Positions 6,333-34,673 of a DNA stretch of 38,288 bases are shown piece after piece. The stretch is from Jimgerdemannia flammicorona (taxonomy: Eukaryota), in NCBI GenBank assembly GCA_003990765.1, contig RBNJ01000163.1, forward strand, positions 1 through 38,288, given 5' to 3'. The translations under genes and the position numbers were made by a program. The stretch's first letter is position 1. Every line of letters begins with the position of its first letter. The notes under the pieces were generated by a model. The model saw only the letters and a program-made list of their open reading frames with translations. It was not told the origin of the DNA and did no database searches.

Positions 6333-6615
6333 TACCACAACTCAGGGTTGGGCTTTTTATAGGGCACTCCAAATATGTTTAGAATTGCGTGTCAAGCGTC
6401 TGGTAAATGTTTGTCTTTTCATAATTATTTCTGTTAAATGAGCGGCCGTAAATCCTGTTCGAAGGTTCTTTCTTACCTTTGAGAAAGTTTAGAAACGGTA
6501 CTTATATTAAAATAAAATTACAAAAGCACATATCACATATTTGATGACAACTTCCTGTGTGTGTGTTTTTTTATTTAATTTAATTTAATTTAATTTATTT
6601 TATTTTATTTTATTT

Positions 6616-8653
6616 AAAACAGCTGAAGAATATCTGCAGTACATCTAGCAGATGATAGAGAAGCTAAGAAAGCATGACCTATACATTAAGCCCAAGAAGT
6701 GCAAATTTGCAGAAATTGAGATCTCCTACCTTGGTCATATTATTAACTGAGATGGAACACACACAGACCCTCTCAATATTTAAACAGTAGCAACATATCT
6801 AAGGCCCACCACTATCACTGAAGCCCAAGCCTTCATGGGACTTCCCTCATACTACCACAAATTTATCAAAGGATTCTCCAATATCACAGGCCCAATCTAC
6901 AAACTCAATAAGAAGAATATCAAGTTTCAATAGACTGATAAGTAACAAAAAGCATTTGATTAAAAAAAATAATAAACAAAAAAACAAAAAAAACAAAAAG
7001 CATTTGATGAACTCAAGATCAGACTGACCCAAGTACCCATTCTCATAAGATTCAATTAGACTCAAGAATTTATCCTGTAGACAGATGTAAGTATATAAGG
7101 ACTAGGAGTAGTCCTGGCTCAGAAAAAAGACAAAGTAGGATATATTATTATATATCTTAGTCAAGGAACCTAAGGAGTTGAAATGGAATATGAATTCTAT
7201 AAGTTAGAATGTCTCACAGTCATCTAGACTATAGAAAAGTTCTACTACTATCTTACCAGAAGACACTTTACCATTCAGACAAACTACTCAGCTCTCACCT
7301 AGTTACTGACCATTAGGCAACTCAAAGAAATCTATACCAGATGGATTATGAAGTTATAGGCCTATAATATAACCATTATGCACTACTCTGGAAGAACTAA
7401 TATCAATGTAGATACTTTCTTATAGATACTCTAAAGAACCTCCAACCTATAAATCAATAATGAATAAGGAGCTTTACTACAGAATTATCACCTATCTAGA
7501 ACAGCAAAAGATGCCCTAATATCTGGAAAAATGGATACAAATAATTATTAACAGAATGTAGAAACAATTTGAAACTAATGGAGAAATATTGAAGAAAGAA
7601 AAACTACTAGTCATATCTGAATACAAGAAGGAGCAAATAATGAAATTAGTATATGAACTCAACTATCTTGGAGGAACAAATACTTATAAAAAAGCAAAAA
7701 GAACAATATAGTGATCAGAAATGGAGAAAGATATTAGATAATTTGTCAAGATCTATAACAAATGCCAAAAATAGAAACAAGATCAACAAAATTAGATCTC
7801 AGAATTAGTATATATAGAATTAGTACCCTTTGCTTATATAGCAATAGATGTAATTATCTCTCTACTCTTGACTTTGAATTGTAATCAATATATCATTTTT
7901 ATTATAGATCTTTTTATAAAATAGATAGAGACAGAACTCCTCAAAGAAGCCAATGCATAATTGATTGCTAATTTCTTTTATAAAGAAATCATTTGCTGAT
8001 TTAAGACCCCATTATAAATAACTACAGATAGAGGAACAGAATTTGTAAATCAGATCTTTGAGGTTCTTTATAAGAAGTATAAGATCTAGTACATTTGGAC
8101 TATAGCCTATTACCTTTAAGAAAATGGATAAATAGAAAGAACCAATAAGACCCTCAAGAATATTATTACCAAGATTTATAATAACTATGAAAATTGGGAT
8201 CACTATCTATTAATAGAATTATCTGCTCTCTGAGATATTTAATCACAAAGCACTCATTTTATCTCTTGGGAAATGCTATTTAGAGAAGAAAGTTCTCAAG
8301 AAACCCTATTATCCAATAGAGATACTATATAGAAATACATGGACATAGAGATACAGAGACTATATCAAATCAGAAAGAAGGCTGAGAATTATATAACCAA
8401 GGTACAGGCACTATATATAATAGAATAATGCAAAAAGGATTTACAAGTCTCTAAAGATTATTAAGATAGAAGATATAGTCCTAGTATATTAAAATATAGT
8501 AGAGACTTCATGGTTATAAAAGCTAGAGCCTAAGTGGGAAAGACCTTACCTTGTGTAAGATATAAAAGAAACCATCTTTTAACTATAAAAACTCTCAGGT
8601 ATAATTATCTCTACTACTATTTACTAAAACTAACTCAAGAAGTATTATGGTTA
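6616..8653 (+). mobile_element. Ty3/Gypsy LTR retrotransposon pol relic (RT C-terminus, RNase H, integrase), hypermutated, 5' part missing
   Basis: KPKKCKF..ISYLGHII, AFMGLPSYYHKFIKGFS (RT/linker); FIL*TDVS..GLGVVLAQ, KLECLTVI*TIEKFYYYL, QTNYSAL (RNase H); DIR*FVKIYNKCQK (zinc finger); IAIDV, ITTDRGTEFVN, ENG*IERTNKTLK (DDE core). Order RT-RH-IN is Gypsy type. Stops are TAA/TAG/TGA revertible by C>T/G>A. Confidence 0.93.
6944..7008 (+). mobile_element. Poly(A)-only retroposition scar: 31-nt A-rich insert with 17-bp TSD
   Basis: AACAAAAAGCATTTGAT at 6944-6960 and 6992-7008 flanks TAAAAAAAATAATAAACAAAAAAACAAAAAA. Removing the insert plus one copy restores the pol frame (QKAFD-ELK). Confidence 0.85.
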
Positions 8654-9153
8654 ATTAATAGAGTATTGTTATAGCTCTCAAGATCACTAATACTATATAA
8701 TAAGCTATAGAAAGACAATAGTATACTACTGAGCCACCTACAATGGAGGAATCCTTCAATAATATTCAGAGTATAGTACAGATATACTTGTTACAAATTT
8801 TACATTTTAAGGTCTACTAGAACTAGACTGAGTTTCAAGAATACTTTAAGTTAGGACAGCTACTGAACTTACAGTCAGAGATGGAAAAAGAAGACTGGAT
8901 TAGAGAGTGTCAGCTCTCTTATACTCAAATTACTATTGCTAAATAGGTTAACAAATTGTTTAAAGATAATGAGCCAGCCATAGCTCATTTCTGAGAAATA
9001 GTTCTAAGAGACTTTAGATATATTAAGAGACACTATTAGGAGAATATAATGATACAAATTATATAGTATAAGAAGATACAACTGGTGGAAGCTTTGGAGG
9101 TCAAGTGAATAGAATATTTCATAAATAAATCTCTATTCAGGAGAAAGTTGTGA
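8647..9153 (+). pseudogene. Extra ~168-codon ORF between Gypsy integrase and 3' LTR (unknown function)
   Basis: ATG 8647 overlaps the integrase end (LKKYYG). A single frame runs to TGA 9151-9153, and internal stops are all revertible to CAA/CAG/TGG/CGA: ...EPPTMEESFNNIQ...EFQEYFKLGQLLNLQSEMEKEDWIRECQLSYTQITIAK*VNKLFKDNEPAIAHF*EIVLRDF... Confidence 0.6.
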
Positions 9154-9624
9154 TGGTTGATACAAATTAGGAATATGAATCAGAAGAATAAATATTTGAT
9201 CACAGTATCTGAATCCAATTCTCAAATATAGTATAGTCTTACAAATAGCAGTCATTTCACAAATATTAAAGTTTTGACAAATGTTAATATTTTTACAAAT
9301 ATTAAGATTTCACAGATATTAAAGATTTAATAGATATTAAGAATTAATACTTGTAAAAAGTAACTTATAGAAAACATAGTTATAACTTAGCTATCTTATA
9401 GCTAGCAAACTTGTATAAATATCTCCAATATCTAAAGTAAATAAACCTCAGATTGAAATAGTTCAAAGCAAAGAGAAAGCAAGAGAACTAATAAATCTGT
9501 AGATAGATATACTTCAAACTCACTCACTTCTACATCTTAAGAACTCTACAGAGTCAAAGAAGATTAAGTTTTCAAGATACAGAAATCCAATATACTTATA
9601 TAATTATATATTTACTATATTACA
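9149..9624 (+). repeat. 3' LTR of the Gypsy element (~476 bp)
   Basis: Preceded by purine tract AGGAGAAAG (PPT). Starts TGTGATGG and ends TATTACA, which reverts to the terminal inverted pair TGTGACG..CGTCACA. Internal TATAAAT (~9414) then AATAAA (~9439), and ~17-18-bp tandem repeats at 9256-9342. Confidence 0.7.
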
Positions 9625-9649
9625 ATATATATAGAAGCTGATTATATAT

Positions 9650-11580
9650 TTAAAATTTCCAATTCTATAGTAACTAAATAATATATAATAGAATAAAACT
9701 TTCAAATTATAGTATATAGATTAAAAATGACAATATATATATTACAATCTTATATTTAAATCTAAATAACTATATATATACTCTTTTAATTAATAGAATT
9801 AACTATAAGAATATCTTCTAATAAGATATATCTTACTATAAATATATAAGTATCAAATAAGGATCATCAAGACTAAATATATAAATAGTCTATCTACTCT
9901 TAGCTTAGTAATATAAAAGCTCATTATATTATCTTAATATTATATATTATAGTTATAACTATATATTATTTATTTATTTAGCTTATATATTTTATATTTA
10001 TCTTAAGTAGTATTGATAAAAATGATAATTAAATATTAATATAATAAATTTTCTTTTAAATATTTGAGCTTTAAGAATCAAGATTTACATCAATTGATAA
10101 ATAAGCAAGTATACTAAAATTTCATAATCTCTAAGTTTCTTACAATACTAAAAATACTACTACTAAATATAATATATATATATAAGTATATTCAAATATA
10201 GCTAAAAAGATCCCTAAATAAGAATCTATTATTTATAATTATACACTTGTCTTTACTGAATTTACTATTAAGCTAGGACTATTTTACTAAGTACTAGTTC
10301 AGATACATATCTCTATTACTTAATAAAATTTTCTAGCTAATAGTATCATTATACTACTAGAGAAGAGATCTAGCTAGTTCTATATAGTTTGTAATTATAG
10401 ATTAATTATTATAACTAAATAAAGTCACATTTGTAAAGCTGGAGAATATTTATAAAATTATAAAATAACTTTCAGTAGATTTAGAGTATTAATTATAAAG
10501 TTTATCAATATATAAGATTATATTAGTTATTTTTTATTAAAAGATACTCAGTCTTTAAGGTAATGCTATATAGAAATATATAAGAAGATTTTTCTTATTA
10601 TATTATTCTCAATGATATTATCTCTATTATACTCAATATTATCTTTAGCTTTATTCATACTAAGACTATTGAAAATATTATTGAAACTTCTATTATAATA
10701 AGAATATATTATATAGTCAGGTTTTTTCTCCTCTCTAAGCTTATAAAGATAGTACTGGAATATGTATATAATCTTTACTAGTCTTAGTATTGTCTCATTA
10801 CTTCTCAATAAAGCCATCACTACTATCTCCTAAAGTGAAGCTAATAAGAATCTCTATAATATACTTCTCAACTATTTCTGTACTCAAAAGCTTACTATTA
10901 ATAAGATGACTAATCTTTTCAAAGAAGTTCTTAAACTACTCTTTATTAAGATAGTGACTCTTTTTATATCTAAGCATAATTTATTATATTAACTAAGTTT
11001 GAATATATAATAAGAATATACTATCTGTTTTGAAGTGCTATACTATTTTATATAATATCAATAATATGGTAGCAGAGTATAATTGTACAGTCTAGTTGAG
11101 AGATGATATATTGTATATCTTATTTCTTAAACTAATAGATTACTCTAACCTTACACTCATTTATCTATATTAACTTAAGAACCTTGTAGAGGTAGTTAAC
11201 ATATTTGTAGAGACCTCTCTATATTATATTTATAGTGTTTTATCATTATGTCTGCAAGAATACTATATATTCTACAGAGTATCTGTCTTTTGTATTATGA
11301 AAAAGCATATTACAATATCAGTCTCTAGTAGGATCAATCAAAAGTCAATTCTCAATTAGTTATTTCTGAAGATAGTCTGATTGTGAAGCTTTTATCAAGA
11401 GCTTTAGAAGTAATAAGGCAGATAGTATGACTTTCTATTCTTAGAGCAGAAGTTTACAGCAATCTATATAAATGGGACATTATTGTTAAATTCATTAGAT
11501 CATTTGACAACTTGGGTATCTGTATGATTGAACTTGTTGAAGAGGAATTCACACATTTTGATAGCCACATGCAAGATTGA
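9650..11580. pseudogene. Extremely hypermutated non-TE segment; 9650-10410 is a paralogue of 11590-11722 + 13041-13855
   Basis: Collinear matches, e.g. 10243-10277 vs 13708-13742 (13 of 35 differences, all C>T or G>A); 9775-9915 vs 13041-13165; 9991-10025 vs 13293-13330. The distal part has a near-open frame (VKLLSRALEVIRQIV*LSILRAEVYSNLYKWDIIVKFIRSFDNLGICMIELVEEEF) of unrecognised family. Confidence 0.65.
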
Positions 11581-11722
11581 CTGTATGCTTGGAATTTTCA
11601 ATTCTACAGTAGTTATCAAAAATATATAATAGAACAAAGTATTCTAATTATAATATATATATTAAAAACAATGATAACATAATCTTATATTTAAATTTAA
11701 ATGATAATATATGCACTCTTTC

Positions 11723-13040
11723 TATAATTTTGAATGTCTACTGGCTATCAAAGATGTGGTATTTGGCATACTATCTGAACTTTCTGGTCTGGGTGATGAA
11801 GAGGTTCTTGAAGCTAGTCAAAGATTGGATCTGGGCTAGGTGAAGGAGTCAGATTAGCTGGGAGATCTTATCATTACCAGTGACTAGAGGAGGTCTTGGG
11901 CTGGTTGACTTTTTGAAGAGGTTATATTATCTGAGAGTATGGTGGTTAAAGAGAGTAGTAGAACTGAGAAGTGGTAGCTAGGTTCCTCTGATAAAGAAGG
12001 TCTGAAAGATGAGATACTTATTGAGAGAAACTACCAGAAATTTACTATCCTTGGTTGGGCTTCCAAATAGTAGGCATATAAGATTTAAGAGCTTCTGGTA
12101 GGGAGTAGTAGATGAGACTTACTATATCAGAATTTGCTATCAGAAATATGAAGGAGAGGTGCCTTGAGGCCCAGTAATATAGAAATGAGATTGAGTGTTA
12201 CTGAGGAGTGCCCTCCTTATGGACTTTGATATTGGTGATAGAGTAGAGTGCCAGAGGGAGATAGGACAGGATATATGGTCTAGCAGCTGACAGATGGTAG
12301 ATATTGGAGAGGAGTGGAACTGGAATGGAGTCTGGACTTAGAGTATGAAGATAAGGTGATAGTTGCCACCCAAGTACTGGGTGGTTTGGTGGTACATGCT
12401 GTAGAGAAATGTTATGCTCAACTTTCACTTAGACCATTTTGTGGAAGGGAGAAACTTTGACTATGAGGAGTACTATAATGTGGGACAGGAAGGGGAGTTT
12501 GTGCAGATGCCAGAATATTGGCTGGGGGAGTATAAGGTACTTGGTGGATTCTGGTTAGCAGTTGGGAATAGACTGGGTCCTGTATATAGGAGAGATGGCA
12601 AGCAGGGTTGATGGGAGGATCTGAGAGATAGATTGGTGGGGGGGGGGGTGAGGAAGAAGTGGCTGACTTTGGGTTGGGTATTAGCAGTATGGATGGGCCT
12701 GGCAGGTCACTGGCTGTTTGTTTTTAAGGAAGGAAAGTGTTTGAGTTTGGGAGAGTAGTTGGTGAGGTGGGAAGGGTTGATAGAGGACATCTTGACAGGC
12801 TGGTGACTGGAATGGGGTCTGCAGGGAGGTCAGTGGCACCATTTGGTGGAGAAAATTTGTGGGCAGAGTGAGGGGAAAGTTGGAGTGGTGGGTGGCAAAG
12901 TAGTTTTCAAATATGAAAATATAGGGAGGGGGCTCCCTAGGGGTATTGGGTAGTAGGAGGGGATAATGTAATTTTATGTGATAGATTGGTAATAAATGGC
13001 AAAGTCCAAGTGACTATAAAAAAAAAATAAAAAAAAAAAA
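11723..13040 (+). mobile_element. 5'-truncated LINE (L1/Tx1-like) 3' end, ~1.3 kb, with poly(A) and 17-bp TSD
   Basis: Begins LNVYWLSKMWY (homologous to 37102 LNVYWMPKLWY), includes the GGLGL and CxxC..HWLxEC-like region, AATAAA at ~12991 and an A-tail 13018-13040. TSD AATATATGCACTCTTTC (11706-11722) / AATACATGCGCTCTTTC (13040-13056). Confidence 0.9.
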
Positions 13041-13855
13041 ATACATGCGCTCTTTCAATCAACGGAATCAACTATGGGACTGCCTGGAGAAATATCACCA
13101 ATGCAAGTATCGGAAAAAGGATCATCGAGGCTGAATGGTCCATCCGCTCTTAGCTTAGCAATATGAATACTATCGTCGTTCTGTACCAAATCCTATTATA
13201 TTGCCCTACCATTTTCGTGCCCTGTATACAGTAATAGCCATTTATTTATTTATTTATTTTGGCTGATGTCTTACCTGTAAACTGTCATGTCCTTTATATT
13301 CGCCTTAAGTAGTGCTATTGACAAAATGGCACACACTATTGCCGAAAATGCCGTTGTAATATGTATGCGTGCGTTCAAAGCAAACCCGAACTTATCGGTA
13401 GGAGAAAAAGTCAGTTTTGATTTAAACGCACTCAAATGCAGCCGAAAAGTCTCATCCATCCATTGCTTTGACAATGGGGACGTCGTCGCCACCTCCCAAG
13501 CCGTGGTATTCCCTGTCCATCTGCATGTACGAAAGCGCGCAGTTTATGGGGCCGAAGCCGCCGACGCACGTCCCTCCGTCTCTGATCCATCGTGCACCCT
13601 CCCTCGGAAGAGCAAGAGTGACAAAGGATATCCCACTCCTCCATCTCGATGACAAACTTGTACCTCCTCGACACATTGGTCAGACAAGGATCTACCAGCT
13701 GCAATCAGCGCTCGTCTCCGCTGAGTCCGCTGTCAAGCTGGGCCGCCGAGTATATCTCCATCGCTTGGCATGGTTTTCTGGCTGGCAGCATCTCTGTGTC
13801 GCTGGAGAGGGGATTCAGCTGGTACCGAATGAGCTCGTGATTATGGATTAGTTCA
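13041..13855. pseudogene. Unmutated paralogue of 9770-10410; fragmentary coding-like remnant, family not recognised
   Basis: CpG-rich and GC-balanced, aligns with the AT-rich copy by transitions in the blocks checked. No continuous ORF or convincing start/stop. Confidence 0.45.
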
Positions 13856-14315
13856 AGTTTTAACATCAACAACTTAATACCAACTTGGTCAATATACCAT
13901 CCACCCCAAAAGGGGGTGTGTAATGACTTTGCGTCTTAGTTCTACTCTCTCTATTCGTTACAGTTTTTGCATATCACACACTGCAATTGGCTAAATGTAC
14001 AAATGCTATCAAAATCACAACAGTCGACCATTTCAGAAAGAAAACATCAATATAGTAAAAAATGAAAGAAAGCAAACGTAGAGGAAGAAGAAAGGTTATA
14101 TCGTATATTTACAGCAAAAAAAGCAACCGCTGAAGAGGAGGCTTTTTCGAATGAAACACTACCTAGGCAACCTTAATCATTGTCGTAAACCGAATCCACG
14201 CAATTTCTTATCCGCAACTCTTCACACAACCCACTCAAAAATCCATTATTCCCCAATTAGAAAATACATCTTTATCCGCCTCCCACTTTCACCTTCCCTT
14301 TGTCCACCTCCGTTT

Positions 14316-15965
14316 TCACCTCCCCTCTCCGGCTTCATCCATCAAGTTTGTTAATTTCTCCACATTGATCGGACTCTCCGCTAACATGTGTGGGTTATAC
14401 GCGAATGAGAATGATAGGTCCCGTAGCGTGATACTTGACTTCCCGTCCTGTTGCCTCGAAATTGACGACGGGGTGGTGAGCAGAGATGGGGCAGGAGTCG
14501 CGGCGCGGGCGCCGGAGAGCGACGACATGCCGAGCGGAATCGGAATGTTGCGGACAAGGTCCGGGCTTGAGGTGATAGGGAGGGCGAAGGCACCGGTATG
14601 GAAGTTGGTGGTGGCGGTTGTGTCCGGTTGTTTGGAGGAGACAGTAATGCCCATGGAGCGGTTGGCGCGGATCTTGTAGATTGTGCTGGAGATGATGGAT
14701 ATAACGTGGCTCTGTGGAGTATGAGGACAGTTAACATCCGTGACTGTATTCCAATTGCATACGTAGCCCCGATCACAACTAACCGCAAACCAAACCCCCC
14801 AAAACCGGCCACCCACCTCCAACGCGTATTTCATCGCCTCGACCGACTCGTCCGCCACCCCGCCCATCAACCCGTTCTCGTGCGCGATGGTCGCCATCCG
14901 GTATCGCAGTGCCTCAAAATTGGGCAGGTCCTTGGTGCCACAGCAGAGTGGAGTGAAGTGACCGTGGGAGAACCCGAGATTAACTGCTGCGTTGTCGTGA
15001 ACGTGAAGGACAAGGTGTGAGCCAGGGATTCAAACCATCGTGCAATGCGTGACTGATGGAATTAACTAGAGGCCTCATAATAAACAGAACGACGCTATTG
15101 CTACACTTGCCTCCCTCTGGCGGTTCCAAAGATATTCAAATATTATATATAAATGAAAACACGAAGCAGAGACACATACTCGGCGGCGTCCTCTCATCTT
15201 TCAAAATAGGCATCATGGGCACATTTCTAATCGGCGGCGACATAGGTTTGTTGATCGGCGCAGACGTCTCCGTGTTCCGTATCTGTTGCAAAAAAAAAAA
15301 AAAAAAAAAGCCAAAAAAAATATGAGGCGACATCTATCAGACCCCTACACAACTCTCACACATTCCCCTATCCTCCCTTCGGCTACTCTCCAGCCCTTCT
15401 CCCTTCCGCACTCTCACCTTCGCCAATTCCTTGATCCTCTCCCTTTCCGTCTTATCCAACGACATGTTATCGCGCTTCTTCTTCTTGGCCTCCTGCCTAA
15501 CACCGCCAACTCCCGCCACGTCATCGTCTTCATCCTTGATAGGGCGCTTGCGCCTTTGTGAGTTAGCGCCATGCTGATTCGCTGGTGAGGGGAAATCCTT
15601 TTGGGCGTTATGGATCGTCGCGAGGATGAAAGCGTTGTGGAGGGGGGCTGGGATAATGGGTGGTTAAAGGATGAGTCGGTGGTATTACCTTTATGACAGT
15701 TAAAAGAGCGGATATTAATGTCCGTCCTTCTGATAGCACAATGACGGGCAACTGCAACAAACGTACCATTTTGCCTATTCAGAAACAGATTTGCATAAAA
15801 GTCAAACTCCTGTCTATTCAGCTTCCCGGTAACAAACTCCCTCAGAGCGTCCCAGTACTGCGGGGCATTGCCGGCCAGGGCATCTACGAGCTTGTGCTTG
15901 ATGTTGAGCAGCTCCTGACGTCCGGTCGGCGGTGCAGTGGTGGTCGGCGGTGCAGTGGAGGGCAT
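14316..15965 (-). CDS. HFI1: SAGA complex subunit Ada1/Hfi1 (SAGA-Tad1 family), 5 exons
   Basis: Exons 15965-15767, 15647-15418, 15282-15180, 14986(or 14983)-14817, 14711-14316, GT-AG and in frame. Motifs YWDALREFVTGKLNRQEFDF..LHNAFILATIHNA, PLCCGTKDLPNFEALRYRMATIAHENGLMGGV..ESVEAMKYALESHV..II, ITLRDL..SFAYNPH are typical of Ada1/Tada1. Confidence 0.88.
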
Positions 15966-18644: not shown

Positions 18645-19372
18645 GACATAAAGAGAATGGTTGGCTGCCACCGGCTACAAAAAAGGGCTGGTAAGCTCGC
18701 CGCCTCAAACCTATCTGCCCACCACCTGATATCGCCACCGCGAAGACGAAAACAAAAAAAAAAAAAAAAAGAATACTCTCTTTGCCGCCGCCACGATCCA
18801 GACCCCGCAGTTTGGTGATATTTTCAAGAGCCTAGTCACGGCGCTCCTTAAGCTCGGCGGAGGCATCGTGGCTCGGCTCCTCAAGCTGGACGAAAAGCGC
18901 GATCTACAGGTCCGTCGGTTGTCGCTGGCGGAACCGCCGTCCCGAAATGAATATATCACGTGCTCTTTGTTATTTCCGAACCACGCGGCTTCGATTTTTG
19001 CCATTGGCCACCGTTTGAACCGCCCACAATACCACAACCGAGGTTGCCGAGTACACATTAAACGTCACTGTCCCCTCCACCTCATTAAGGCGAGGTGTCG
19101 GGTGGACTCGAAGGATGTTGACGCGAACGGGTACACTTTATTCTTTGAAATAATTTATTTCCGACCGTTTCCGACCAGTTTCCGACTGGGTTGTTGCCAA
19201 CGGTGTTGTAATATACATATATTATGGAAAGAAGCGGTTTCTTCCTTGCTTAAGGATGTGTGGGGGCACGTGGTCAAAAACAGGACGCGTCCAAAATGGG
19301 CAAAATCCTGGATTCTGAAACACACATGTAATCGGAAGAAGTCCATTTCCATTTCCATCTCTAAAGCGCTCT
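18645..19372 (+). pseudogene. Possible degraded ankyrin-repeat gene remnant
   Basis: Scattered ankyrin-like words: ENGWLPPATKKG followed by a GTAAGC donor, TLFAAA, IVARLLKL, HAAS..GH, PLHL, DVDANGYTL, EAVSSLLK. Spacing is not canonical. Confidence 0.3.
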
Positions 19373-19710
19373 AATTACTCAGTGGAGTGTTTCAGATACT
19401 TCTTGCAGTTTCATAGAGGCATTACTAGTATTCTAGTAGGTTTGAGGGGATAGAGACCTCCATGTATAAATAGCATAGGATTTGAGCATGTAATAAAGGA
19501 CAGAGTTGGTTCAGATAATCAGAATTTATTAGAAAATTGACAACTAGAGCACATATTTTGAGAATTTATAGATCTAAAGATTAGGTATACAAGCAGTCAT
19601 TTTTCAAGCCTTCTAAGAGGTTCTTCAGATACTTTACTTAATGAATTCTTTATAGCAAATATATTATGACTACTATATGCCCTTTTAGTCTATATCTAGA
19701 CTAATTACTG

Positions 19711-20371
19711 TTTTTTTTTTTTTTTTTAATAGTCTTATAGATTTCACTATTTATTACCAGTCTATCAATATAATTATAGTACTCCATCCCACTACCTAAT
19801 CTTTTTAGGGAGGCTCCCCTCTACTCTCTTATACTTGAAAGCTACCTTATCATTAACTATTATTACTCTCTCTCTATTCTGTTTATAAATCTTCTTTATC
19901 AATCAATACTGATATCTTCTCTATAAATCTCATCTCACTCACTAATCTATCAAGATATCTTCCAACAATCCTTCCTACCTCACCAGCTGCTCCCCCAAAC
20001 CAACTTATCTCTTTTTCTCAAAAATATATAGCTAATGTTCTATCAGTCTCACCTATATAGCTAAAATTCAATCAATAGTGAGCTACTTATTTTAATACTC
20101 TCTACTAATCTATCTTTTAAGTTCTCCCATCAGTCTCTCTCCATCTCTCCTTCTCACAACATTCAACCTATCTCCAACTACTAACCAAAAGTCTTTGAGT
20201 ACTTCACACTCTTATAGCTAATGTTCTAGTATCTATATATACTCTTTTTTCTATTTAATATTATAATATTCCTTATAATCAAATTGACCACCCTCTACAA
20301 GATAATCTATATAAAAGTTGAGTATGATATTCTGCCTCAGCAAGTATCACCAAACCACTCAAAACTTAAGT

Positions 20372-20406
<35 letters not shown>

Positions 20407-22247
20407 GGACTCATGTCCTGCAGATTTTTATTAGAAGAGAACCTAGACTATATAGGCCAAAACCCTCCTCCACCATCCACCAAGCACTACCCCTCCATTA
20501 ACCTAGGCTAGCTATTGTTCAGCAGCTCGACCATGCCAGGTGCAGCAGGGCCGATAAGGCCTGTACCTCATTCTGTGTACCATACTCTCCCTACTACCAG
20601 GGGAAACCCAACCATATACCAATGACCAAAAGTATATGCCTGAGAACCCAACATATGTACAAGGCCATGCCCGAGCCAAATAGAATAGCCCTGCCACCCC
20701 AAAGAGAATGACAGATAAAGAAAAAACCCTCATCAAAGTACAACATAGTGGGTAGGGCCTGGTTCTCTCAGTTGAGGTGAGTAAAGGACTTATATGTAAG
20801 GTGAGAGGAAACCCCCAATACCCCACTACTTAAGCCTGTGGACCTCGATCACATTGCTATATCAGCTCCTGGTTCCAGTTGAGTGCAGCCAAGATATCTG
20901 AAATGGGTAGCCTCAGGCCTCCTGACCCCTCCTGATGACTAGGGCCCAACCCTGCTGACTGCCAAAAGAAGCTGATAGTGATACCTACTATGTACCTAAC
21001 CATGCCACACCAATCAAAAGGCCCCACTGAAGCAGCACCTGCCCCAGCCCCAATGACCACCCCCAGTCTGGTACCCTACTGGTTCACTGTAATCACCCTT
21101 CCTCCTATCTATAATGACCATCTCTCCTCCCATCCCGACAATACCTGAAAAACAGTCACCTATATCAGAACCACACTTGCCAGGAAGCTCGCCAAAGCCA
21201 GAGAGCCCCACCACAGGCACCGAGGACCTGCAGGTAACCTACACTGAGCACTTGATGCCCAAAGTTGGCTGACTCCCTATGTAGCCTGAGATACACCAAG
21301 ACAACATCTTGTTGGTGATGGCAAAAGGAAGAAGGCACCACACTAAAATGGGTATACCCCAGATGCAGCTGAAGGCACCAGAATCTGCGAAAAAGTGGAG
21401 AAAGCACCAATCTAACACTAATAAAGGAGCAACTCATCACTATTGCCCTCCTCCCACCATACCCCTGCAGGCACAGCAAACCAACCCGAGATAGAGGGGG
21501 TAACAATAGAGGAAAGGGGACTCGGAAGGTTATCTACCAAACCTTGTAACCGGTAAGATAGTGGAGAAAGGAGCTGTCAAAACTTAAGTAATAGTTATTA
21601 TCAGATCTCAGCACTTTAGGCCCAGACTCTATTTTAGTCTCACCCCTCTCCAATACCTATTATCTACCAGCCCCTAGACCATATATCTTATCCTAACTCT
21701 CTCTGGCACTCTACTCTATCTCTAATATTGAAGTTAATTAGTGAGATGTCCTCTAATAATACTCAATTTTATCTCTATATTACTGGACCCTATAGTATCT
21801 CTCTCTTTACTCTTTACTAGTGAAGATCAATACAGTATATTCTATCAACTACTCTCTATCAAAAGCTCTTAAATTATATATGCTCACTATTCTGAAACTC
21901 AATCAGAGATAAAAGATCTCTTATAGAGTCTCTTGGCAAGAACCTCATCTTCTAGATCTTTTTCATCAGAGAGACTCAGCTACTACTCTTCAGTTCTACT
22001 GCTCTCTTTAATTACCAAGCTTACAGATAATATAGTCTTTTTAAGAAATCCACCAGCCCAAGTTCTTCTCTATCTACTGATAATAATAGAATTTTTCAGC
22101 TAATCTGACTCTGTCTATCAGCTCAGATCCAACTCTTGACTAGCTTCAATAGTCTCTTTATCATCCAGGCTAGAAAGTCCAGATGATATACTAAATACTA
22201 TAGCTTTGATAGCTAGTAGACATTCAAGATTGAAACATAACCTACAA
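19711..22247 (-). mobile_element. 5'-truncated LINE 3' end (minus strand), split by a 1.2-kb insertion
   Basis: T-tail 19711-19727; reverse-complement homologous to 11730-13020. TSD AGACTAATTACTGTT (19698-19712) / AGATCAATTACTATT (22248-22262), differing only by transitions. Confidence 0.88.
20375..21576 (-). mobile_element. Complete ~1.2-kb non-autonomous poly(A) retroposon (long SINE-like), copy 1
   Basis: Perfect 16-bp TSD TCAAAACTTAAGTAAT (20359-20374, 21577-21592); ~30-nt A-tail; AATAAA ~25 nt upstream of the tail; 5' end CTCCTTTCTCCACTATCTTACCGGTTACAA resembles the LINE 5' terminus; no recognisable protein. Confidence 0.88.
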
Positions 22248-22781
22248 AGATCAATTACTATTCTTTAACTGTTAAGTAATTTCTGATAGAAGACTGTCAA
22301 ATTTACATTAATAGAGACATTGAGGAATAATTCTTAAAATTAAGTATTTAAAGTAAAATCCACAACCACTATGCTAAAATATTACTAGTATAAGAGACTC
22401 TGCTATACTATACCAATATATACTATAAGAATATTATCATCTTCTTTAAGGATTTAGAGATATATATAGTTGATTACTACATCTATACTAATGAAGAAAA
22501 GATAGATATCTTTAAAGTCTATTTATATGATAAGATCTTGACCATGACCAATAATATAGTTATATTGAAGAACCCTTTCATCATTACTATCAGACCTATA
22601 TATAATATAATTAAGACCTATATTATCACTCAATTCACTTAGAATTGAGGACTTATAATACTTAACATCAATCTCAGTACTATTATAATCAGTCTAGAAG
22701 AGAGCTTTATTACTTTCTGAGCCCAGATATAAAAGAATTACAATCTATATAATATTATAATAAAGAAGTTAAGAGAGTGAT

Positions 22782-24235
22782 CTCTCTCTGATAATATTCA
22801 GATTATACAACCTTTTGGCAATACTTATGATATAGTTTTTTGGAGAAAAATACTAGTAGCATAGTGACTGACAAGCATTCTGAGGTACATACTGAGTAGG
22901 GTAGCTCTGGGACATTTGACTGGCAGTATGTAGGGAGGGGCCCCAGCTTATGGAGAAGCATGAGAGGCTTATTGGTAGAAGGATATAGTAGGAAAGGAGG
23001 TAGTGCTGGTAGACAGAAAACTGGGAGGACTAGTTTCATAGATAAGGTGAAGAGAGATTAGTAGAGAGCTGGGCTAAAGAGTTGACTGAGGAGAGACAAG
23101 GAGATCATGAAGACTGTAGGGCAACAGCTTCAAGAGAGAGTTCTTCTGGAAGGTCAGAACAGTGGGGCTGATAGTGTAGTAGCTGAGAGAGTGACTGCTG
23201 ATAGGAGTATAATAGGCAATCTGGAAAAAAATCTAGTTAGGACTGCTGATAGTAGACTGAGCTATGAGAAAAGCATGAGGCCTAGTGATCTAACTGATGA
23301 TATAATAGGCCTAGTGGTGGCACTATTACTCAAGAAGTCAATCTTAGAGTTCACAGTCATACTGTACTTCTGAGGCTTAGTAGTAATAGCAAAAATGGTC
23401 TTGGAATTAATTATAAAGCAGATGGATGGAGTAGTATTAGTGAAGTTCCTGAGGGGCTTAAAAGGGATGAAGGTGGGCTTTGAGGAGACTGAGCAGCCTT
23501 TGAAAGCTGCACTACAGGCAGAGTTGACTATTGGGAAAATATGTATTCCAATGGTATGATACTTGAGGTGGGACCCCAGGGTAGTACAACTTCTGATAAA
23601 AGAAGTATCCATAATGATAGCTATAGAGATGAGGAGAAAAGTAGAAGAGGTCATGGTAGAGTATAAAGAGGTAGTTGATATTGGCTTTTGTATCTGGGAA
23701 GGGATCTCATTCAGAACAGGAGATATTGATGTTCAGCTTTAGCTGGCAGGGAAGGAGGCTACTGAGAAGATTCATAATTGGCCATTAGTAATAATGTAGA
23801 GGACCTTTGTATATAAGGTAATAAGGGTGAAGGAGAGTGAGGAGGAGGAGGAGAATTTGTTAAAGATATTAGAGGAAATGAATGGAGCAGTAGAGCAGAG
23901 AACAAAGGTTTGGAAGAAGTATATAGAGTTGATATATTTGGAGATTATAGATAGGAAGTATGTCTATATTGACAAGAGACTGTGGGAGCAGTCTCAAGGA
24001 TACAAGAGGCAGAGGAAGTTGTTGGTAAGCCTAAAAGAGAGGGCAAAGAAGAATATTAGTAGTGTTAAGGAAAGGGCCTAGATAAGGCTGGGAAAGTGGT
24101 GAGCAATAACTTATATATAGATAGTATGTTTGAAGTCTAGAAGGACACACTCTCTCTTATTAGGCAGGGTCCAGTTATAAGGAGTTGGGTGGCAGAGAAT
24201 GTACCAATCCTTACACTCAACTACATAATATCCTT

Positions 24236-24240
<5 letters not shown>
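22782..24240 (+). mobile_element. LINE copy A (5' end + ORF1 part), heavily hypermutated
   Basis: 5' motif CTCTCTCTGATAATATTCAGATTATACAA. ORF1 DLTDDIIGLVVALLLKKSILEFTVILYF*GL..VKFLRGLKG..WDPRVVQLL..RTGDIDV. Interrupted at 24241. Confidence 0.88.
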
Positions 24241-24319
<79 letters not shown>

Positions 24320-25153
24320 GACTCAAAGTTCTATAGATTTTTATTAAAAGAGAACCTAGACTATATAGACCAAAACCCTCTCCCACTACCTACTAAGTAC
24401 TGCTCCCTCATTAACCTAGGCTAACTATTGTCCAGCAGCTTAACTATACTAGATACAGTAGAACCTATAGTGGCCTGTATCTCATTCTATGTACCATACT
24501 CTTCCTACTACCAGGGAGAATCCAGTTATATGCCAATAACTAAAAGTGTATACTCAAGACCCCAATATATGTACAAGACCACACTCAAGCTGAATAGAAT
24601 AGCCCCTACTACCCCAAAGAGAATGATAGGTAAAGAAAAACTCTTATCAAAGTATATAATAGTGAATAGGGCCAGGTTCTCCCAGTTAAGGTGAGTAAAG
24701 AACTTATATGTGAGATGGGAGAAGACCCTAATACCCCACTACTCAAACCTGTAGGCCTTAATTATATTGCTGTGTCTGCTTTTGATTTCAGTTAAGTATA
24801 GCCAAGATATCTGAAATAGATAGCCTTAGGTCCCCCAACCCTCTCTAATGACTGGGGCCCAATCTACCAAATTGTCAAAAGAAGCTGAGAGTGACACCTA
24901 CCACCTAACTGCTTCACACCAATCAAAAGGCCCCACTGAAGCAGCACCTGCCTCAGCTCTGATGATCACCCCCAGCCTGGCATCCTACTGGTTTACCATA
25001 ATTATCCTTTCTCTTATCTGTAATAGCCATCTCCTCTCCCATCTCAACAATACCTAAAAAACAGTCACCTACACCAGAACTGCACTTGCTGGGAAGCTTG
25101 CCAAAGTCAGAGGGCCCCACTATAGGCACTAAGGACCTGCAGGTAACCTATAC
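24241..25153 (-). mobile_element. Non-autonomous retroposon copy 2 (3' ~0.9 kb; rest displaced by the next insertion)
   Basis: 75-nt T run 24241-24315, then collinear with 20404-21243 up to CTGCAGGTAACCTA; more C>T/G>A mutated than copy 1. Confidence 0.88.
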
Positions 25154-27975
25154 CAATTCAACTAAACTGGTCTTAGTTTTTTGAACTTCCTGAAATATAG
25201 AAAATTCTGAATATTCAGAATAAGTCTGAAAAAGAGACTTTGGTTGAGATATCAACCTAATCTTGAAATCAATAAGCATAGAGAATATACTCTATATAAA
25301 ATTGATCTTGACCTAAAGAAAACAGTTTTCTAAAATATTTAGAACTTTCAGAAAATCCTTCCAGAACTATATAATAACACTCTAATAAAGTAACTCTCTT
25401 ATAACTTAGTAGTAGTGAGTTACAATCCAATTCTACTTCAAGATGCTTTCTTATTCTACTATAAATCTTTACAAGAAATTCCTATAAGTTAGTATAAAGC
25501 CCAACCTCTAAACTGAAATTTATTCTAAACTATCTGACAATTTGAAGTGAATTAAACCTGATGTATAAGGATAATTTGACCTCTATACCTATAATAAGTA
25601 GGACAGACTTTATCTACAAAATGAAGTACTCTAATTAAATCAGCAGATAGATAAAACTCTATATACTAAACTTTTTGCTCTATACCCTACAAATCAAGAC
25701 AAAGAAGGTCTTATAGAAGTCTTCTTTACTCTTCTCAATAAGAGTTTTATTAGCTCTATAAATCTGAGCAATCTAGAACAACTAGTAGCTATTTTTCTAG
25801 CCTTAGTTTCTTATGAAATATAAGCCTCTGTAGTCAAGTGGCTCAACTTTACCAACTATCACCATATCAGGATCAAGACTGCCTTATAGTACTATTTCCA
25901 AAATTGCAAGATCTGCTATATTCTTAAAGAAGAAGTTAGGGAAACTCTTTATCAACAATCTGACTCTGAGTCAGCACTGAACTGAAACCAGCTTTTGAAT
26001 TAAGCTTATCTGAAATCTAATACATAACTAATATATATTATCTACTTTAATATCAAATAAACCTAACTATACAGAGACCAAAATAAAGAGGAGGAGGAGT
26101 ATCTTACTAAATTCAATCCTAGATATACATACTACTAAAAAGACATACTTTCCTCAGGACAAAACACACCTATAGAACAATAGACAGTTATCTATCAACT
26201 CTTATACCAGACTCATAACAGTTACTTCAGTAACTTATATAGACTCAAAGAACACGATTATACTCTGCACTACTATCTCAAGTCATACTAGTAACTCTAC
26301 TATCAGTAGTCCAACCATCTCTAGTAAATAATATAGCAAACTAACAGATTCTAGACCTTACAGCCTAGATAGCTATAATGGTAGCAACTATTACTATCTT
26401 AGCCAAACAGACCTAACCAATAAAAAGTCTGAGTCTATCTATCTTTAATAGTACTATACAAGAAGTCCAAAGCTTCATTAATATAGTTAATACTAATTTT
26501 GAAGTCAACCAATAGACTAATAAGTGAGTTGCTGACTGCCTTCTGATAAATAACCAAGACCATATCATCAAATAACTTTTTGCTACTATTATAGCCTATA
26601 TCTATTAAGTTGTTACATTCTTCTAAGGACCTGCTGAAGAATAGTAGCAAACTCTTTCTGAAAAACCCCTCATATAAGATACTCAATCTGTAGTTATTGC
26701 CCAAAATACAGTAAATAATACTCCAGGATATGGAGACCACTCTGTAGCACCTGGGCTCAAATAACTCATAATTGCTCAATATTGCAGTAAAACTCTGATT
26801 GCTGAATTCTGAGCAAAACTCTGTAGCCTCAAATTTGATTTATATAGTAAAGAGAAGTTTGAAACCTTCTATATAAAACTCAAGTCACTTCTGAATACTA
26901 TTGATCTAGAATATATTATTAATAATAAAGTATGAAATAGTACAAGAGTAGACTATTTATTTGATATACTATCAGAATAGCTCACAAAAAAGATCTGAGA
27001 ACAAGAATGCTCAGTTAGCTATAACTATCAATAATAGTATCTGATAAGAATCAAGATCATGGTTAAGTGAATTTTAATAGCTAGATCAATTCTGCCTCAA
27101 AGACAATTCAACAACAAGGAAGAATCTTAGATCAAGAAAGAAGAACCCAAGCATGAAGTATCCTAAGCTCTCTTTATATCTATCTCTAGAATATTCTGAA
27201 ATTCTGAACCTACTCAGCTAAGTATCTTTAAGAAACTTATTAAAGGAGAAAGAAATGAACTCCAAAGAAGTAGTATATACTTTTATTGCTAAAAGATAGA
27301 ATATATAGCTAGTATCTGCTCTAACTAAAAACTCTAAACAGTAATATAAGCAACTGTTACTACTCTGTATCATCTCAATAATCTGACTACCAAGATACTA
27401 GACTTTGTCAAGTTAAGGCTAACTGCTATGGCTCTAACCAAAGAAAGCCAAAAAGCAGTTAGATATGATCTATATGTAGCTAAAGAAGCTATGGTTTCCA
27501 ACCAGGAAGTCAAGTAAGTCTATATAAGGATCAGCATCCAAATTCCTGAAAGATATATTAGAAGAATATGCTGTTGCAGCAGCCTAGTATTAAAAAAACT
27601 CTTAGTAGAAGGAGGAATCATTGATAAAGATTATATAGGCAAAATCATTATCCTTATCTGAAACTATAGTTGGATATCATTTAAGATCTCTATTAGATTT
27701 TGTATTGTATAGATCTTATTTGAGAAAATTGAGTCAACCCTGATAGTCAAGGAAGTCTCTGAACTATTGCCTACTATCTGAGGATTCAAAGAATTTAGCT
27801 TATCAAAAAAATCCTCAGCACAACCTACTATAAATAAAGAAGAGCAATTCTATAAGAAAATTGAAGATAGATTTGTACCAAGTGGTCAATATCTCTATAG
27901 TATTGAAATATACTCTTTCTGAATAATTGATAATTACTACTCTTATATCAATGAACTGATCCAAAGAGTGGGTAC
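25154..27975 (+). mobile_element. LTR retrotransposon relic 3 (LTR-like, putative PBS, long 5' ORF, gag with CCHC knuckle, dUTPase)
   Basis: TATATAA..AATAAAG then TAGTAGTAGTGAG at ~25407 (reverts to a TGGTAGCAG iMet-type PBS). Gag words VVTFF*GPAEE**QTL (=AEEWW). Knuckle YFYC*KIEYIASICS at 27278-27322 reverts to CFYCxKxGHxAxxCP. Cut by a LINE at 27976. Confidence 0.8.
27401..27805 (+). pseudogene. dut: Trimeric dUTPase domain of the LTR retrotransposon (hypermutated)
   Basis: Reads FVKL..AVRYDLY..IQIPERYIRRICCCSSLVLKK.LVEGGIIDKDYIGKIIILI*N..FCIV*ILFEKI..TI*GFKEFSLS. Transitions revert this to the five dUTPase motifs AGYDL, GRIxxRSG, GGxIDxDYxGEI, RIAQ, RGxxGFGSS. Same frame as the upstream zinc knuckle. 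Confidence 0.92.
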
Positions 27976-32400: not shown

Positions 32401-32646
32401 GAAGGGGCCACAATTGGGGTTCGGTGGAGGAGGATGAAAGAGATAGCCAGGATATATTGGAGCGAGGCTGGCAGAGTGGCTGGGAGACAGTGAAGGCAGA
32501 GAGTGCATTGGGCTTCTACTAGATTGGCTAGGCTTCTGGAGGAGTGGGTGAGTCTGGCAGTAGTGGAGAGAGAAGAGAATTGGAGAATAACAAGGGTGAA
32601 GATGGAGGTTGGGGAACTACAACAGATGCTGCAGGAAGTGCGGACT
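29450..32646 (+). mobile_element. LINE copy C: ORF1 (29527-31545) and ORF2 endonuclease (from 31576), interrupted by copy D
   Basis: 5' motif CTTTCTCCAGTAACATTCAGGTTACACAA. ORF1 MATNEHPEV..RRM-like VQLLVKGVS..YGEMVDI..RTGD with a few stops. APE endonuclease SLNVN, DLFLLQD, GGDFN, TRIDW, WSDH. Confidence 0.92.
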
Positions 32647-32725
32647 CTTTCACCAGTAACATTTGGGTGACACAAGACTCAGACAACACTTTTTACAATG
32701 TTTTTGGTGTCTGACGACTAACAAC

Positions 32726-34642: not shown

Positions 34643-34673
34643 ATTGGGGTCTCTTCTACAATATCTACTCAAT

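Follow-up and report, generated by a model that had tools for sequence, protein, structure and literature searches.

Classical RIP, as in Neurospora and Leptosphaeria, is known for AT-rich isochores and for leakage, and Leptosphaeria maculans is a known RIP species. Mutagenesis of the RIP type is regarded as characteristic of the Dikarya, and essentially of the Pezizomycotina. The relevant passages of two papers report RID from Pezizomycotina only (PMC9963178, PMC5751038), and those of the former also mention DIM-2-like homologues in Endogonales, in a text that leaves the species unnamed. DIM-2-mediated RIP is described as reaching adjoining single-copy DNA, with an even stronger preference for CpA (10.1101/115501, passages on DIM-2). 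Methylated transposons undergo Dim2-dependent CA>TA changes in Zymoseptoria tritici, which the authors liken, in the passages concerned, to a mitotic RIP that needs no sexual cycle (PMC8016269).

Outside the Dikarya, the picture given by the corresponding sections of recent papers is largely negative. A kingdom-wide screen of 2025 is summarised as finding strong RIP signatures only in four ascomycete classes (PMC12543289), and a paper of 2021 gives RIP signatures as undetected in Mucoromycotina and the transposons of Rhizophagus irregularis as CpG-methylated (PMC8647823). Table S14 of the 2025 screen labels Jimgerdemannia flammicorona 'no_rip' by k-mers, with 23 k-mers enriched in non-coding DNA and none in annotated repeats, the same type of pattern as in Leptosphaeria maculans (PMC12543289). 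A literature search combining Jimgerdemannia or Endogonales with RIP, methylation, DIM-2 or DNA methyltransferase found no report of such a signature.

Here we describe a RIP-like locus in J. flammicorona, a mycorrhizal fungus of an early-diverging group. The window, by which we mean the whole stretch of DNA that was analysed, is 38,288 nucleotides long (contig RBNJ01000163.1), and its features are collected in Table 1.

Table 1. Coordinates of the features discussed in the text
Feature	Position	Strand	Remarks
Hypermutated island without CpG	6497..13047	.	0 CpG against 139 expected, 127 GpC (6,552 bp)
LTR-retrotransposon pol relic (end of reverse transcriptase, then RNase H)	6649..7299	+	Broken by stop codons
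Left copy of the repeat	9624..10407	+	Hypermutated; 17% GC, without CpG; from alignments and composition
Mutated linker between the copies	10408..11563	+	24% GC; 11-mer 11067-11077, purine tract 11540-11548
Right copy, left piece	11564..11722	+	Mutated as well; 18-21% GC, without CpG
Target-site duplication of the LINE insert, left (16 nt)	11707..11722	+	Two transitions against its twin at 13041-13056
LINE 3' fragment, 5'-truncated, splitting the right copy	11723..13040	+	Poly(A) 13018-13040; no CpG
Target-site duplication, right	13041..13056	+	Unmutated; first CpG (13048) after 6,552 CpG-free bases
Right copy, right piece	13054..13853	+	Pristine; 47-49% GC, CpG obs/exp about 0.9
Hfi1/SAGA-Tad1 gene	13945..15954	-	Five exons, expressed; Pfam matches, spliced RNA contig; normal CpG content
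Second transposon island	19368..29531	.	CpG-free or nearly (12 CpGs in 10.2 kb); LINE fragments, repeat pair
Two little-mutated LINE copies (endonuclease and reverse transcriptase)	29474..38288	+	Less-mutated reference

Two copies of a repeat

The left and right copies are paralogous, as the initial annotation had proposed. An unbiased local alignment (+1/-1) of 9600-10450 with 11560-11722 joined to 13054-13900 scored 115.5, against 26.1 +/- 2.2 (maximum 31) in 30 shuffles. When a log-odds model allowing C>T/G>A was used, 9639-9917 aligned to 11578-11722 plus 13054-13167 with a score of 139.3 (20 shuffles, 21.9 +/- 1.5), whereas a control model allowing C>A/G>T reached only 39.8 on the same copies. 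Further collinear blocks pair 9983-10014 with 13285-13316 (score 30.5, marginal) and 10215-10407 with 13681-13853 (score 110.1; shuffles 21.3 +/- 1.6), and a purine/pyrimidine diagonal scan independently recovered 10288-10397 opposite 13733-13842. No alignment could be obtained between 10015-10214 and 13317-13680. An earlier transition-tolerant scoring (shuffles 579, copies 846) was dropped as too permissive in favour of the log-odds model.

The left copy is low-complexity, AT-rich sequence prone to spurious alignment, and the similarity might on that account be due to chance, to a natively AT-rich copy or to an assembly artefact, with no hypermutation at all. This is hardly credible, however, as the scores lie far above those of the shuffles, the gain appears only with the transition-tolerant model, the blocks are collinear over 770 bases, and parts of the island are matched by RNA contigs of the organism itself (where such contigs are missing, this carries no weight).

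The limits of the left copy are approximate (start 9624-9639, end 10407 to about 10428). The coordinates first given for the copies were off by no more than a few bases, 13041-13053 being the poly(A) end and target-site duplication of the LINE insert. About 90 bases separate the end of the right copy from the 3' end of the Hfi1 transcript, which an RNA contig places at 13945. Beyond the ends, neither 8000-9638 against 10420-11577 nor the sequence to the right of 13853 contained a block above the score threshold, and a purine/pyrimidine scan of both strands of the window found no other relative of 6500-11600. A degenerate 29-nt pattern derived from the repeat had 0 matches in the metagenomes scanned.

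Direction and context of the changes

Across the 317 bases that align with 13054-13853, the left copy carries 43 C>T and 47 G>A changes. Transitions in the opposite direction number 2 and transversions 11, so that C>T or G>A in this copy accounts for 90 of the 103 differences from the pristine partner. The 35-nt block that first drew attention corresponds to 10243-10277 and 13708-13742; its 13 differences are all of this kind, as had been stated, and it is the sole window with at least 12 of them.

The changes depend strongly on context. Cytosines of the pristine piece were changed in the left copy at 42 of 44 CpA, 24 of 29 CpG, 14 of 34 CpC and 10 of 47 CpT sites (CpA against CpT, p = 1e-13), a contrast that does not come from the alignment model, since the model scores all C>T changes alike. 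Conversion to TpA affected 20/21 CpA and 20/22 TpG, and all 14 aligned CpG dinucleotides were destroyed, 10 of them to TA. Because CpA is the most strongly hit context, the spectrum is RIP-like, and the contrast with the CpA preference of RIP that the initial annotation implied does not hold. Its argument that CpG-methyl decay alone is insufficient is borne out, as the changes are not confined to CpG: only 24 lie there and 66 of the 90 elsewhere, which CpG-only decay cannot account for.

The right copy is less uniform than it had appeared. It is CpG-rich, as described, to the right of the LINE (obs/exp 0.93 in 13001-14000), but its left piece has no CpG and 18% GC in 11578-11719. Its 140 aligned bases include 16 changes in the direction of the left copy, 8 in the direction of the piece itself and 5 transversions. 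The right piece has 2 transitions of its own in 317 bases and the left piece 8 in 140 (Fisher p = 0.0017), and the claim that one copy only was mutated has to be abandoned, since the right copy is mutated over its left 159 bases.

The CpG-free island and its edge

GC content in the island is lowest (17-19%) at 9500-10500. The sequence duplicated at the insertion site of the LINE occurs once in the left repeat copy (9772-9787). Compared with its right twin, the left target-site duplication carries one CpA>TpA and one CpG>CpA change. This duplication is thus mutated on the island side only, which shows that mutation continued after the LINE had inserted and did so only on that side. The LINE insert is homologous to 37095-38288 and, inverted, to 19759-20399 and 21564-22251. 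Along it, the forward minus reverse transition rate falls from about 0.19-0.27 on the left to 0.03-0.04 on the right, so that the island edge fades out inside the insert within about 1.3 kb. Mutated DNA adjoining the repeat also includes the linker and the island-side part of the LINE.

As had been suggested, hypermutation at this locus is a matter of position or domain and is not paired between the copies: 6497-13047 is free of CpG and the right piece is spared. It also sits, again as proposed, in and around transposon relics, with the pol relic and the LINE insert both in the island. The position of the edge could be due to a spacer effect of the LINE, to its poly(A) tract or to transcription of the neighbouring gene.

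Identity of the elements

The initial annotation regarded the duplicated segment as non-TE. This is probably wrong, to judge by the reverse transcriptase/RNase H relic that it adjoins, by the 11-mer at 11067 and by the transcribed, diverged paralogues of the segment. Four matches in the relic, each below the Pfam cut-offs, are collinear with matching spacing: RVT_1 (profile 173-205 at 6649-6747, E 2.9e-4), RT_RNaseH_2 (3-25 at 6976-7056, E 0.076, and 41-63 at 7099-7170, E 0.12) and RT_RNaseH (61-83 at 7228-7299, E 0.018). No integrase match was found in this relic. The left copy lies directly downstream of it. The 11-mer is unique in the window and is presumably primer-binding-site-like, as it matches the complement of the 3' end of the initiator tRNA; the window holds no tRNA gene for comparison. 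The purine tract of the linker lies shortly before the right copy.

Direct repeats are present, with the right one truncated, and neither TG..CA ends nor a flanking target duplication can be demonstrated. RNA contigs from the same organism contain diverged paralogues of the segment with indels, and contigs with a similarity of at least 85% to the pristine right copy occur. Five frames of that copy gave no Pfam family even at E 5, its 123-aa frame had no homologue among proteins of 67-216 residues, and its frames had no usable match in the Atlas. On these sequence features, the most likely identity of the duplicated segment would be a Ty3/gypsy-type LTR, whole or in its 5' part. The left copy probably represents the 5' portion of an LTR whose end may lie at about 11066.

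The insert at 11723-13040 is a fragment of a non-LTR (LINE) retrotransposon, with 5' truncation, poly(A) and a 16-nt target-site duplication. Full LINE copies at 34.6-37.0 kb match Exo_endo_phos (E 1.7e-8) and RVT_1 (E 2.6e-15).

Other repeats and genes in the window

The Hfi1 exons agree fully with a named protein of J. flammicorona, which places the DNA in Mucoromycota (Endogonales), the possibility raised at the outset. The window also contains a GH3 gene. Its best identities (53-62%) are spread over chytrids, Mucoromycota and basal basidiomycetes, and in a tree it groups with one protein outside the named clades and is not nested in the sampled Dikarya, among which Pezizomycotina are represented by one row; taken alone, this gene says no more than that about the host.

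Other repeats in the window bear the marks of the same process. The second island contains a repeat pair (20369-21265 and 24282-25174) in which 105 transitions in one copy and 39 in the other stand against 13 transversions. Three-way polarisation of a LINE copy in the same island (19700-22260) gave 142 lineage-specific C>T/G>A changes, 19 reverse changes and 19 transversions. Its context order is unlike that of the focal pair, with CpC (0.47) about equal to CpA (0.51).

Since it is in retroelements (an LTR element and LINEs) that these C>T/G>A changes occur, an APOBEC-like deaminase could have edited their cDNA before integration. Changes per site are nevertheless equal on the two strands, both in the focal pair (43/75 C and 47/79 G sites) and in this LINE copy (26/60 C and 116/296 G). 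Moreover, mutation of the target-site duplication and of the host-side piece to the left of the LINE took place after integration, and the gradient crosses the insertion boundary, which makes such editing very improbable.

The composite RIP index along the window is at most 0.58, weakly positive, and falls below zero in the LINE relics without CpG. RIP of the classical, RID-dependent Neurospora kind, set off by the duplication itself and leaking into the flanks, would account for the nearly transition-only changes with a preference for CpA>TpA, and for pairs in which both copies are mutated (105 and 39 in the second island, 16 and 8 at the left piece of the focal pair). It does not agree with a right piece that has no more than 2 transitions of its own over 317 bases, though it is about 800 bp long and 2.6 kb away, with a mutated linker and a mutated, non-homologous LINE flank, or with the adjacent multi-copy LINEs at 29.5-38.3 kb (55% GC), which are barely mutated. 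The passages cited above place RID in Pezizomycotina only (PMC9963178, PMC5751038), and the host is a mucoromycote. We therefore consider this explanation improbable. The sparing of these LINEs and of the transcribed paralogues that resemble the right copy speaks for a local domain and against an efficient search for homology. No homology-triggered model predicts that an 800-bp LTR piece with transcribed paralogues stays pristine; this requires an ad hoc boundary and is a difficulty for the explanation preferred below as well.

Passive decay is rather unlikely, though it carries real weight. It would require only that CpG and CpA, or all contexts, were methylated for long and that 5-methylcytosine deaminated spontaneously, without a mutagenic step. 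CpG is wholly lost across both islands (bar the few listed in Table 1), even where GC is 41-49%. The little-mutated LINEs at 29474-38288, which have 55% GC and a G-rich sense strand, are already at CpG obs/exp 0.13-0.44, which suggests that CpG is lost first and the other contexts with age. The focal copies are not young, as transversions amount to 11/317 bases, or 19/356 in the unbiased alignment, and deamination of 5mC is presented as a general mutagenic load (PMC13297926, passage on 5mC). Taken by itself, the DNA fits slow methylcytosine decay as well as an active enzymatic step. Against decay alone, saturation at CpA (42/44) equals or exceeds that at CpG (24/29), and the repeat pair of the second island has 144 transitions to 13 transversions, which puts non-CpG C>T many times above background and is more than we would expect from spontaneous deamination. 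Passive decay and the explanation that we prefer have a methyltransferase in common.

Proposed explanation and its meaning

We favour, with moderate confidence, a domain-bound, strand-symmetric C>T hypermutation of a transposon relic of J. flammicorona that prefers CpA and CpG, with a DIM-2-type methyltransferase as its putative agent. According to this proposal, one LTR copy would lie inside a 6.5-kb transposon relic and the other at the relic edge, beside the expressed Hfi1 gene. On both strands equally, CpA and CpG have been driven to TpA near saturation, and CpC and CpT much less. Everything within the domain is hit: the pol relic, the presumed LTR, the linker, the right copy over its left 159 bases and, on the island side, half of the LINE. 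Mutation fades to nothing within about 1.3 kb, inside the later LINE insert. The agent may be a cytosine methyltransferase of DIM-2 type tied to heterochromatin, which would convert C to T through its marks or its activity, working in a mode akin to the DIM-2/DIM-5 branch of RIP in Neurospora or to the Dim2-dependent CA>TA mutator of Zymoseptoria. Points against this proposal are the different context order in the LINE copy of the second island, the heavy mutation of CpG, which was spared in the Zymoseptoria experiment, and the 'no_rip' label of the species, although that label goes with a k-mer pattern of the type listed for Leptosphaeria maculans.

The locus is unusually clean, as it combines a pristine internal reference, a dated insertion and near-saturated change of CpA and CpG to TpA. 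It shows a RIP-like process to have been at work in a mucoromycote whose transposon-rich genome measures 231-240 Mb, and it bears on whether the DIM-2 branch of RIP is ancestral and on how DNA next to genes is shielded from mutation. Relics of this kind can escape screens based on repeat annotation.

More tentatively, and on balance doubtful to us, an Endogonales fungus that lacks RID according to the literature may run a DIM-2-type, heterochromatin-based genome defence by C>T change at CpA and CpG, and RIP-like mutagenesis would predate the Pezizomycotina. If so, it would be at least as old as the common ancestor of Mucoromycota and Dikarya, and kingdom-wide screens would miss the process because its relics are no longer annotated as repeats.

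Comparison with known systems

Decay after CpG methylation (DNMT1/DNMT5 type, for example in basidiomycetes) shares with the island the full loss of CpG in transposon regions beside unaffected genes, but would not give 66 of 90 focal changes outside CpG or the steep order CpA > CpC > CpT. Classical RIP, in the relevant sections of PMC12543289, likewise leaves sharp-bordered AT-rich blocks beside GC-balanced genes, CpA>TpA changes and stop codons in transposons. It normally mutates both copies and nearly all repeats, whereas the focal right piece and the LINEs are spared here and the composite RIP index is weakly positive at most.

The Dim2-dependent mitotic mutation of Zymoseptoria tritici resembles the island in being confined to transposon regions, which in Zymoseptoria are methylated, and biased to CA>TA. 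CpG sites stayed unmutated in the experiment as described there (PMC8016269), while every aligned CpG was destroyed here (14/14). Zymoseptoria is also an ascomycete that has RID, and the present host is a mucoromycote. The DIM-2/DIM-5 RIP of Neurospora crassa, according to the passages on it, shares the restriction to C>T/G>A, a very strong preference for CpA and the mutation of linkers and adjoining single-copy DNA, and does not need RID (10.1101/115501). It differs from the J. flammicorona locus, where, in a mucoromycote, CpG is hit as heavily as CpA, one linked member of the repeat is almost wholly spared and many nearby repeats are barely mutated.

Gene-bearing stretches and transposon islands

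By composition and domain searches, the 38.3 kb split into gene-bearing stretches, with a GC content of 40-58% and a CpG observed/expected ratio of 0.8-1.4, and two transposon islands. A 237-residue Hfi1 frame was compared with a set of 1.84 billion representative proteins, and the best match, 99% identical, was 'hypothetical protein BC936DRAFT_142241, partial [Jimgerdemannia flammicorona]'. In a pairwise alignment with this protein all aligned residues (206/206) were identical, and gaps occurred only at intron/splice read-through. The second-best match was 56% identical and was followed by Mortierellomycotina, Calcarisporiella, Bifiguratus, Basidiobolus and others. The NCBI lineage of J. flammicorona is Mucoromycota, Mucoromycotina, Endogonales, and the hypermutation that the initial annotation considered notable if the host belonged to the Mucoromycota thus lies in such a host.

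Features of the window
Feature	Position	Strand	Remark
Pectinesterase gene	about 1360-2385		
GH3 beta-glucosidase gene	about 4800-6320		
First transposon island	6497-13047		
RVT_1 end	6649-6747		E 2.9e-4
RT_RNaseH_2, positions 3-25 and 41-63	6976-7056 and 7099-7170		
RT_RNaseH, positions 61-83	7228-7299		
16-nt target-site duplication of LINE insert	11707-11722 and 13041-13056		single occurrence in left copy
LINE fragment	11723-13040		5'-truncated, poly(A) tail; splits right copy
Hfi1/SAGA-Tad1 gene	exons 13945-14711, 14817-14986, 15180-15281, 15418-15647, 15767-15954	minus	from spliced RNA contigs
Gene without known family	16103-17399	minus	high expression
Second transposon island	19368-29531		
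Two LINE copies	29474 to window end		little mutated; endonuclease domain E 1.7e-8, reverse-transcriptase domain E 2.6e-15

Contigs from two RNA sequencing runs of the same organism, X1 and X2, were aligned to the window. Over Hfi1 (14357-15948) the X1 contigs are ~2.6% off the window (9/349 bases, plus 6-nt indels) and the X2 contigs almost identical to it, which suggests two haplotypes or strains under one organism label. The frames of the neighbouring gene at 16103-17399 gave no Pfam family; its introns measure ~78-90 nt and its RNA contig depth is ~1,500-2,450, at least 10x that of Hfi1. The GH3 gene (5402-6382) groups solely with one CBM1-bearing protein, to which it is 61% identical across 204 columns; the clades of its best matches (Mucoromycotina, chytrids, Dikarya) do not include it. 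On its gene side the first island is bordered by a (TTTAA/TTTTA)n simple repeat (6570-6615), and two low-complexity purine-rich tracts, 2779-2904 and 24211-24342, match one another in inverted orientation.

Mutation of the left copy

The left (~9624-10407) and right (11564-11722 plus 13054-13853) segments are indeed paralogous, as claimed initially: an unbiased local alignment scored 115.5 versus 26.1 +/- 2.2 for shuffles. A log-odds model tolerant of C>T/G>A gave 139.3 for 9639-9917 versus 11578-11722 plus 13054-13167, where a C>A/G>T model gave 39.8 and shuffles about 22. Further collinear blocks join 9983-10014 to 13285-13316 (score 30.5) and 10215-10407 to 13681-13853 (110.1), and an attempt to align the middle stretch, 10015-10214 versus 13317-13680, gave no alignment. 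Just upstream of the left copy, 9236-9345 holds four degenerate 18-nt units that belong to a 39-nt family, are 67-79% alike and show inverted symmetry.

The initial annotation had described one-way C>T/G>A change in the left copy from a 35-nt block, which corresponds to 10243-10277 versus 13708-13742 and in which 13/13 differences are of this kind. When the CpG-rich part of the right copy served as the reference, the same direction was found over 317 aligned bases in ungapped blocks: the left copy shows 43 C>T and 47 G>A; reverse transitions number 2 and transversions 11. Since 43/75 C and 47/79 G sites were changed, the process is strand-symmetric. CpA was changed at 42/44 sites, CpG at 24/29, CpC at 14/34 and CpT at 10/47 (CpA versus CpT, p = 1e-13; C before purine versus C before pyrimidine, p = 4e-15), so that the contrast drawn initially with the CpA preference of RIP was mistaken. 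All 14 aligned CpG dinucleotides were destroyed (10 to TA, 2 to CA and 2 to TG), and TpA was produced from 20/21 CpA and 20/22 TpG. As the scoring model weights every C>T equally, this context order is not a product of the alignment. The spectrum of the left copy is of the RIP type, extended to CpG.

The right copy and the island edge

The right copy was not spared throughout. To the left of the LINE (11578-11719, 140 aligned bases) its GC content is 18% and CpG is absent, and it carries 8 transitions of its own there, as compared with 2 over the 317 bases on the other side (p = 0.0017). Within the right copy, mutation has thus affected the part left of the LINE, and the part on its right is pristine; the view that only one copy had been hit does not hold. 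Relative to its gene-side counterpart, the island-side copy of the target-site duplication shows one CpA>TpA and one CpG>CpA, and mutation therefore continued after the LINE insertion, on the island side only.

Compared with 37095-38288, the LINE insert shows from left to right 0.28/0.09, 0.30/0.03, 0.25/0.12, 0.24/0.14, 0.15/0.11 and 0.21/0.18 forward transitions per G/C site / reverse transitions per A/T site, a noisy gradient given 66% identity between the two copies and 13-21% transversions. At its edge the island tapers off over about 1.3 kb, without a step. The position of this edge inside the LINE may be due to the insert acting as a 1.3-kb spacer, to its poly(A) tract or to transcription close to the 3' end of Hfi1, which lies 90 bases from the right copy.

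Composition of the islands and other repeats

The first island contains 127 GpC but 0 CpG, where its base composition predicts 139; the first CpG after this gap, at 13048, falls within the gene-side target duplication. GC content is at its minimum of 17-19% at 9500-10500, which corresponds to the left copy, and is higher to either side. The second island is without CpG over 21552-26254 and 26256-29531. The composite RIP index is weakly positive, with a peak of 0.58 in 10001-11000, and negative in LINE relics that are CpG-free yet GC-rich, where (CpA+TpG)/(ApC+GpT) is 1.3-1.5; the pattern in these relics fits CpG as the earliest context to be lost, by conversion to TpG and CpA.

The same process is seen in further repeats of the window. 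Between the members of the repeat pair 20369-21265 / 24282-25174 there are 105 + 39 transitions but 13 transversions. When LINE 3' fragments were aligned three ways, the copy at 19700-22260 was assigned 142 C>T/G>A, 19 transitions in the reverse direction and 19 transversions. Per-site rates in this copy are equal for C (26/60) and G (116/296); such symmetry between the strands speaks against editing of cDNA by a deaminase. The rates of this copy by context are 0.51 for CpA, 0.47 for CpC and 0.23 for CpT; CpC is thus close to CpA, unlike in the left copy, and the context order therefore differs between targets.

At 20400-21563 a ~1.16-kb element, a member of the repeat pair, breaks an inverted LINE 3' fragment (19759-20399 / 21564-22251) as a nested insertion, and the second island therefore grew through repeated hits. 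The sense strand of the LINE family (29600-38288) consists of 40.6% G, 14.3% C and 22.5% each of A and T, a GC skew of about +0.5 over 8.7 kb; composition of this kind was also noticed at 11723-13040, 22800-24150 and 28000-29500. This extreme composition accounts for long open frames on both strands, and its equal shares of A and T mean that C>T decay does not explain it.

Identity of the duplicated segment

The segment had been described as non-TE, which is probably wrong. A pol relic on the same strand lies directly upstream, as four collinear Pfam matches, all sub-threshold. An 11-mer at 11067-11077, found once in the window, is a candidate primer binding site, as it matches what we take to be the complement of the initiator tRNA-Met 3' terminus, commonly used as such a site, and a purine tract lies shortly upstream of the right copy. 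RNA contigs of the same organism match 9340-9873 and 13078-13900; they contain indel joints (11559>13166, 13093>13146 and 13122>13293), and their loose ends resemble diverged paralogues. Where contigs and window differ between G/C and A/T, it is mostly the contigs that have the G or C (for X2, 31 places versus 5 opposite, counted across 4000-20000).

The simplest reading of the arrangement would be an internal region followed by an LTR, a short remnant of internal sequence and a truncated LTR, all of a Ty3/gypsy-type family that would keep unmutated, transcribed members; neither TG..CA ends nor a flanking duplication could be made out. None of the frames searched in the pristine copy yielded a protein family or a homologue. 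A 167-codon minus-strand frame covers it at 13435-13935, with a single TGA at 13705-13707; parts of this frame matched no homologue or family, and the frame may have arisen by chance, the DNA being GC-rich.

Comparison with known systems

Leptosphaeria maculans is a textbook RIP species. In the accessible text of the screen of Badet and Croll 2025 (PMC12543289), which used scaffolds >50 kb only, strong repeat-directed signatures are confined to four Pezizomycotina classes; J. flammicorona has 23 k-mers enriched in non-coding DNA (TATA 4.0-fold) and 0 in repeats, a ratio of 0 and the label 'no_rip', and L. maculans is given the same pattern (45/0/0, 'no_rip'). This label is compatible with old relics, because L. 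maculans carries it as well. The mean scaffold length of the J. flammicorona assembly is 6.5 kb. Dallaire et al. 2021 (PMC8647823), in the accessible part, cite another paper for RIP signatures being undetected in Mucoromycotina, and our literature searches turned up no account of such a signature for Endogonales.

Classical, homology-triggered RIP of the RID type is a misfit: the 800-bp repeat piece is untouched though 2.6 kb from its partner, the adjacent multi-copy LINEs retain 55% GC, and the non-homologous linker and flank are also mutated. RID is moreover known from Pezizomycotina only, according to the accessible text of PMC9963178 and PMC5751038. The domain dependence proposed in the initial annotation agrees with this distribution. 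C>T mutation would be bound to a chromatin domain, and its agent would be of the DIM-2 type and linked to heterochromatin, a reading proposed from one locus in one window towards which we lean slightly. The main rival, purely passive decay of CpG- and CpA-methylated DNA, appears less likely to us; the sequence itself is compatible with either.

For a DIM-2-type process, DIM-2-like homologues have been reported for Endogonales (PMC9963178, accessible part), and in Zymoseptoria a functional Dim2 is described as leading to mitotic CA>TA mutation in methylated transposons (PMC8016269, accessible part). The DIM-2/DIM-5 branch of RIP in Neurospora, as described in the accessible part of 10.1101/115501, has an even stronger CpA preference and mutates linkers and adjoining single-copy DNA, likewise affected here as linker and flank.
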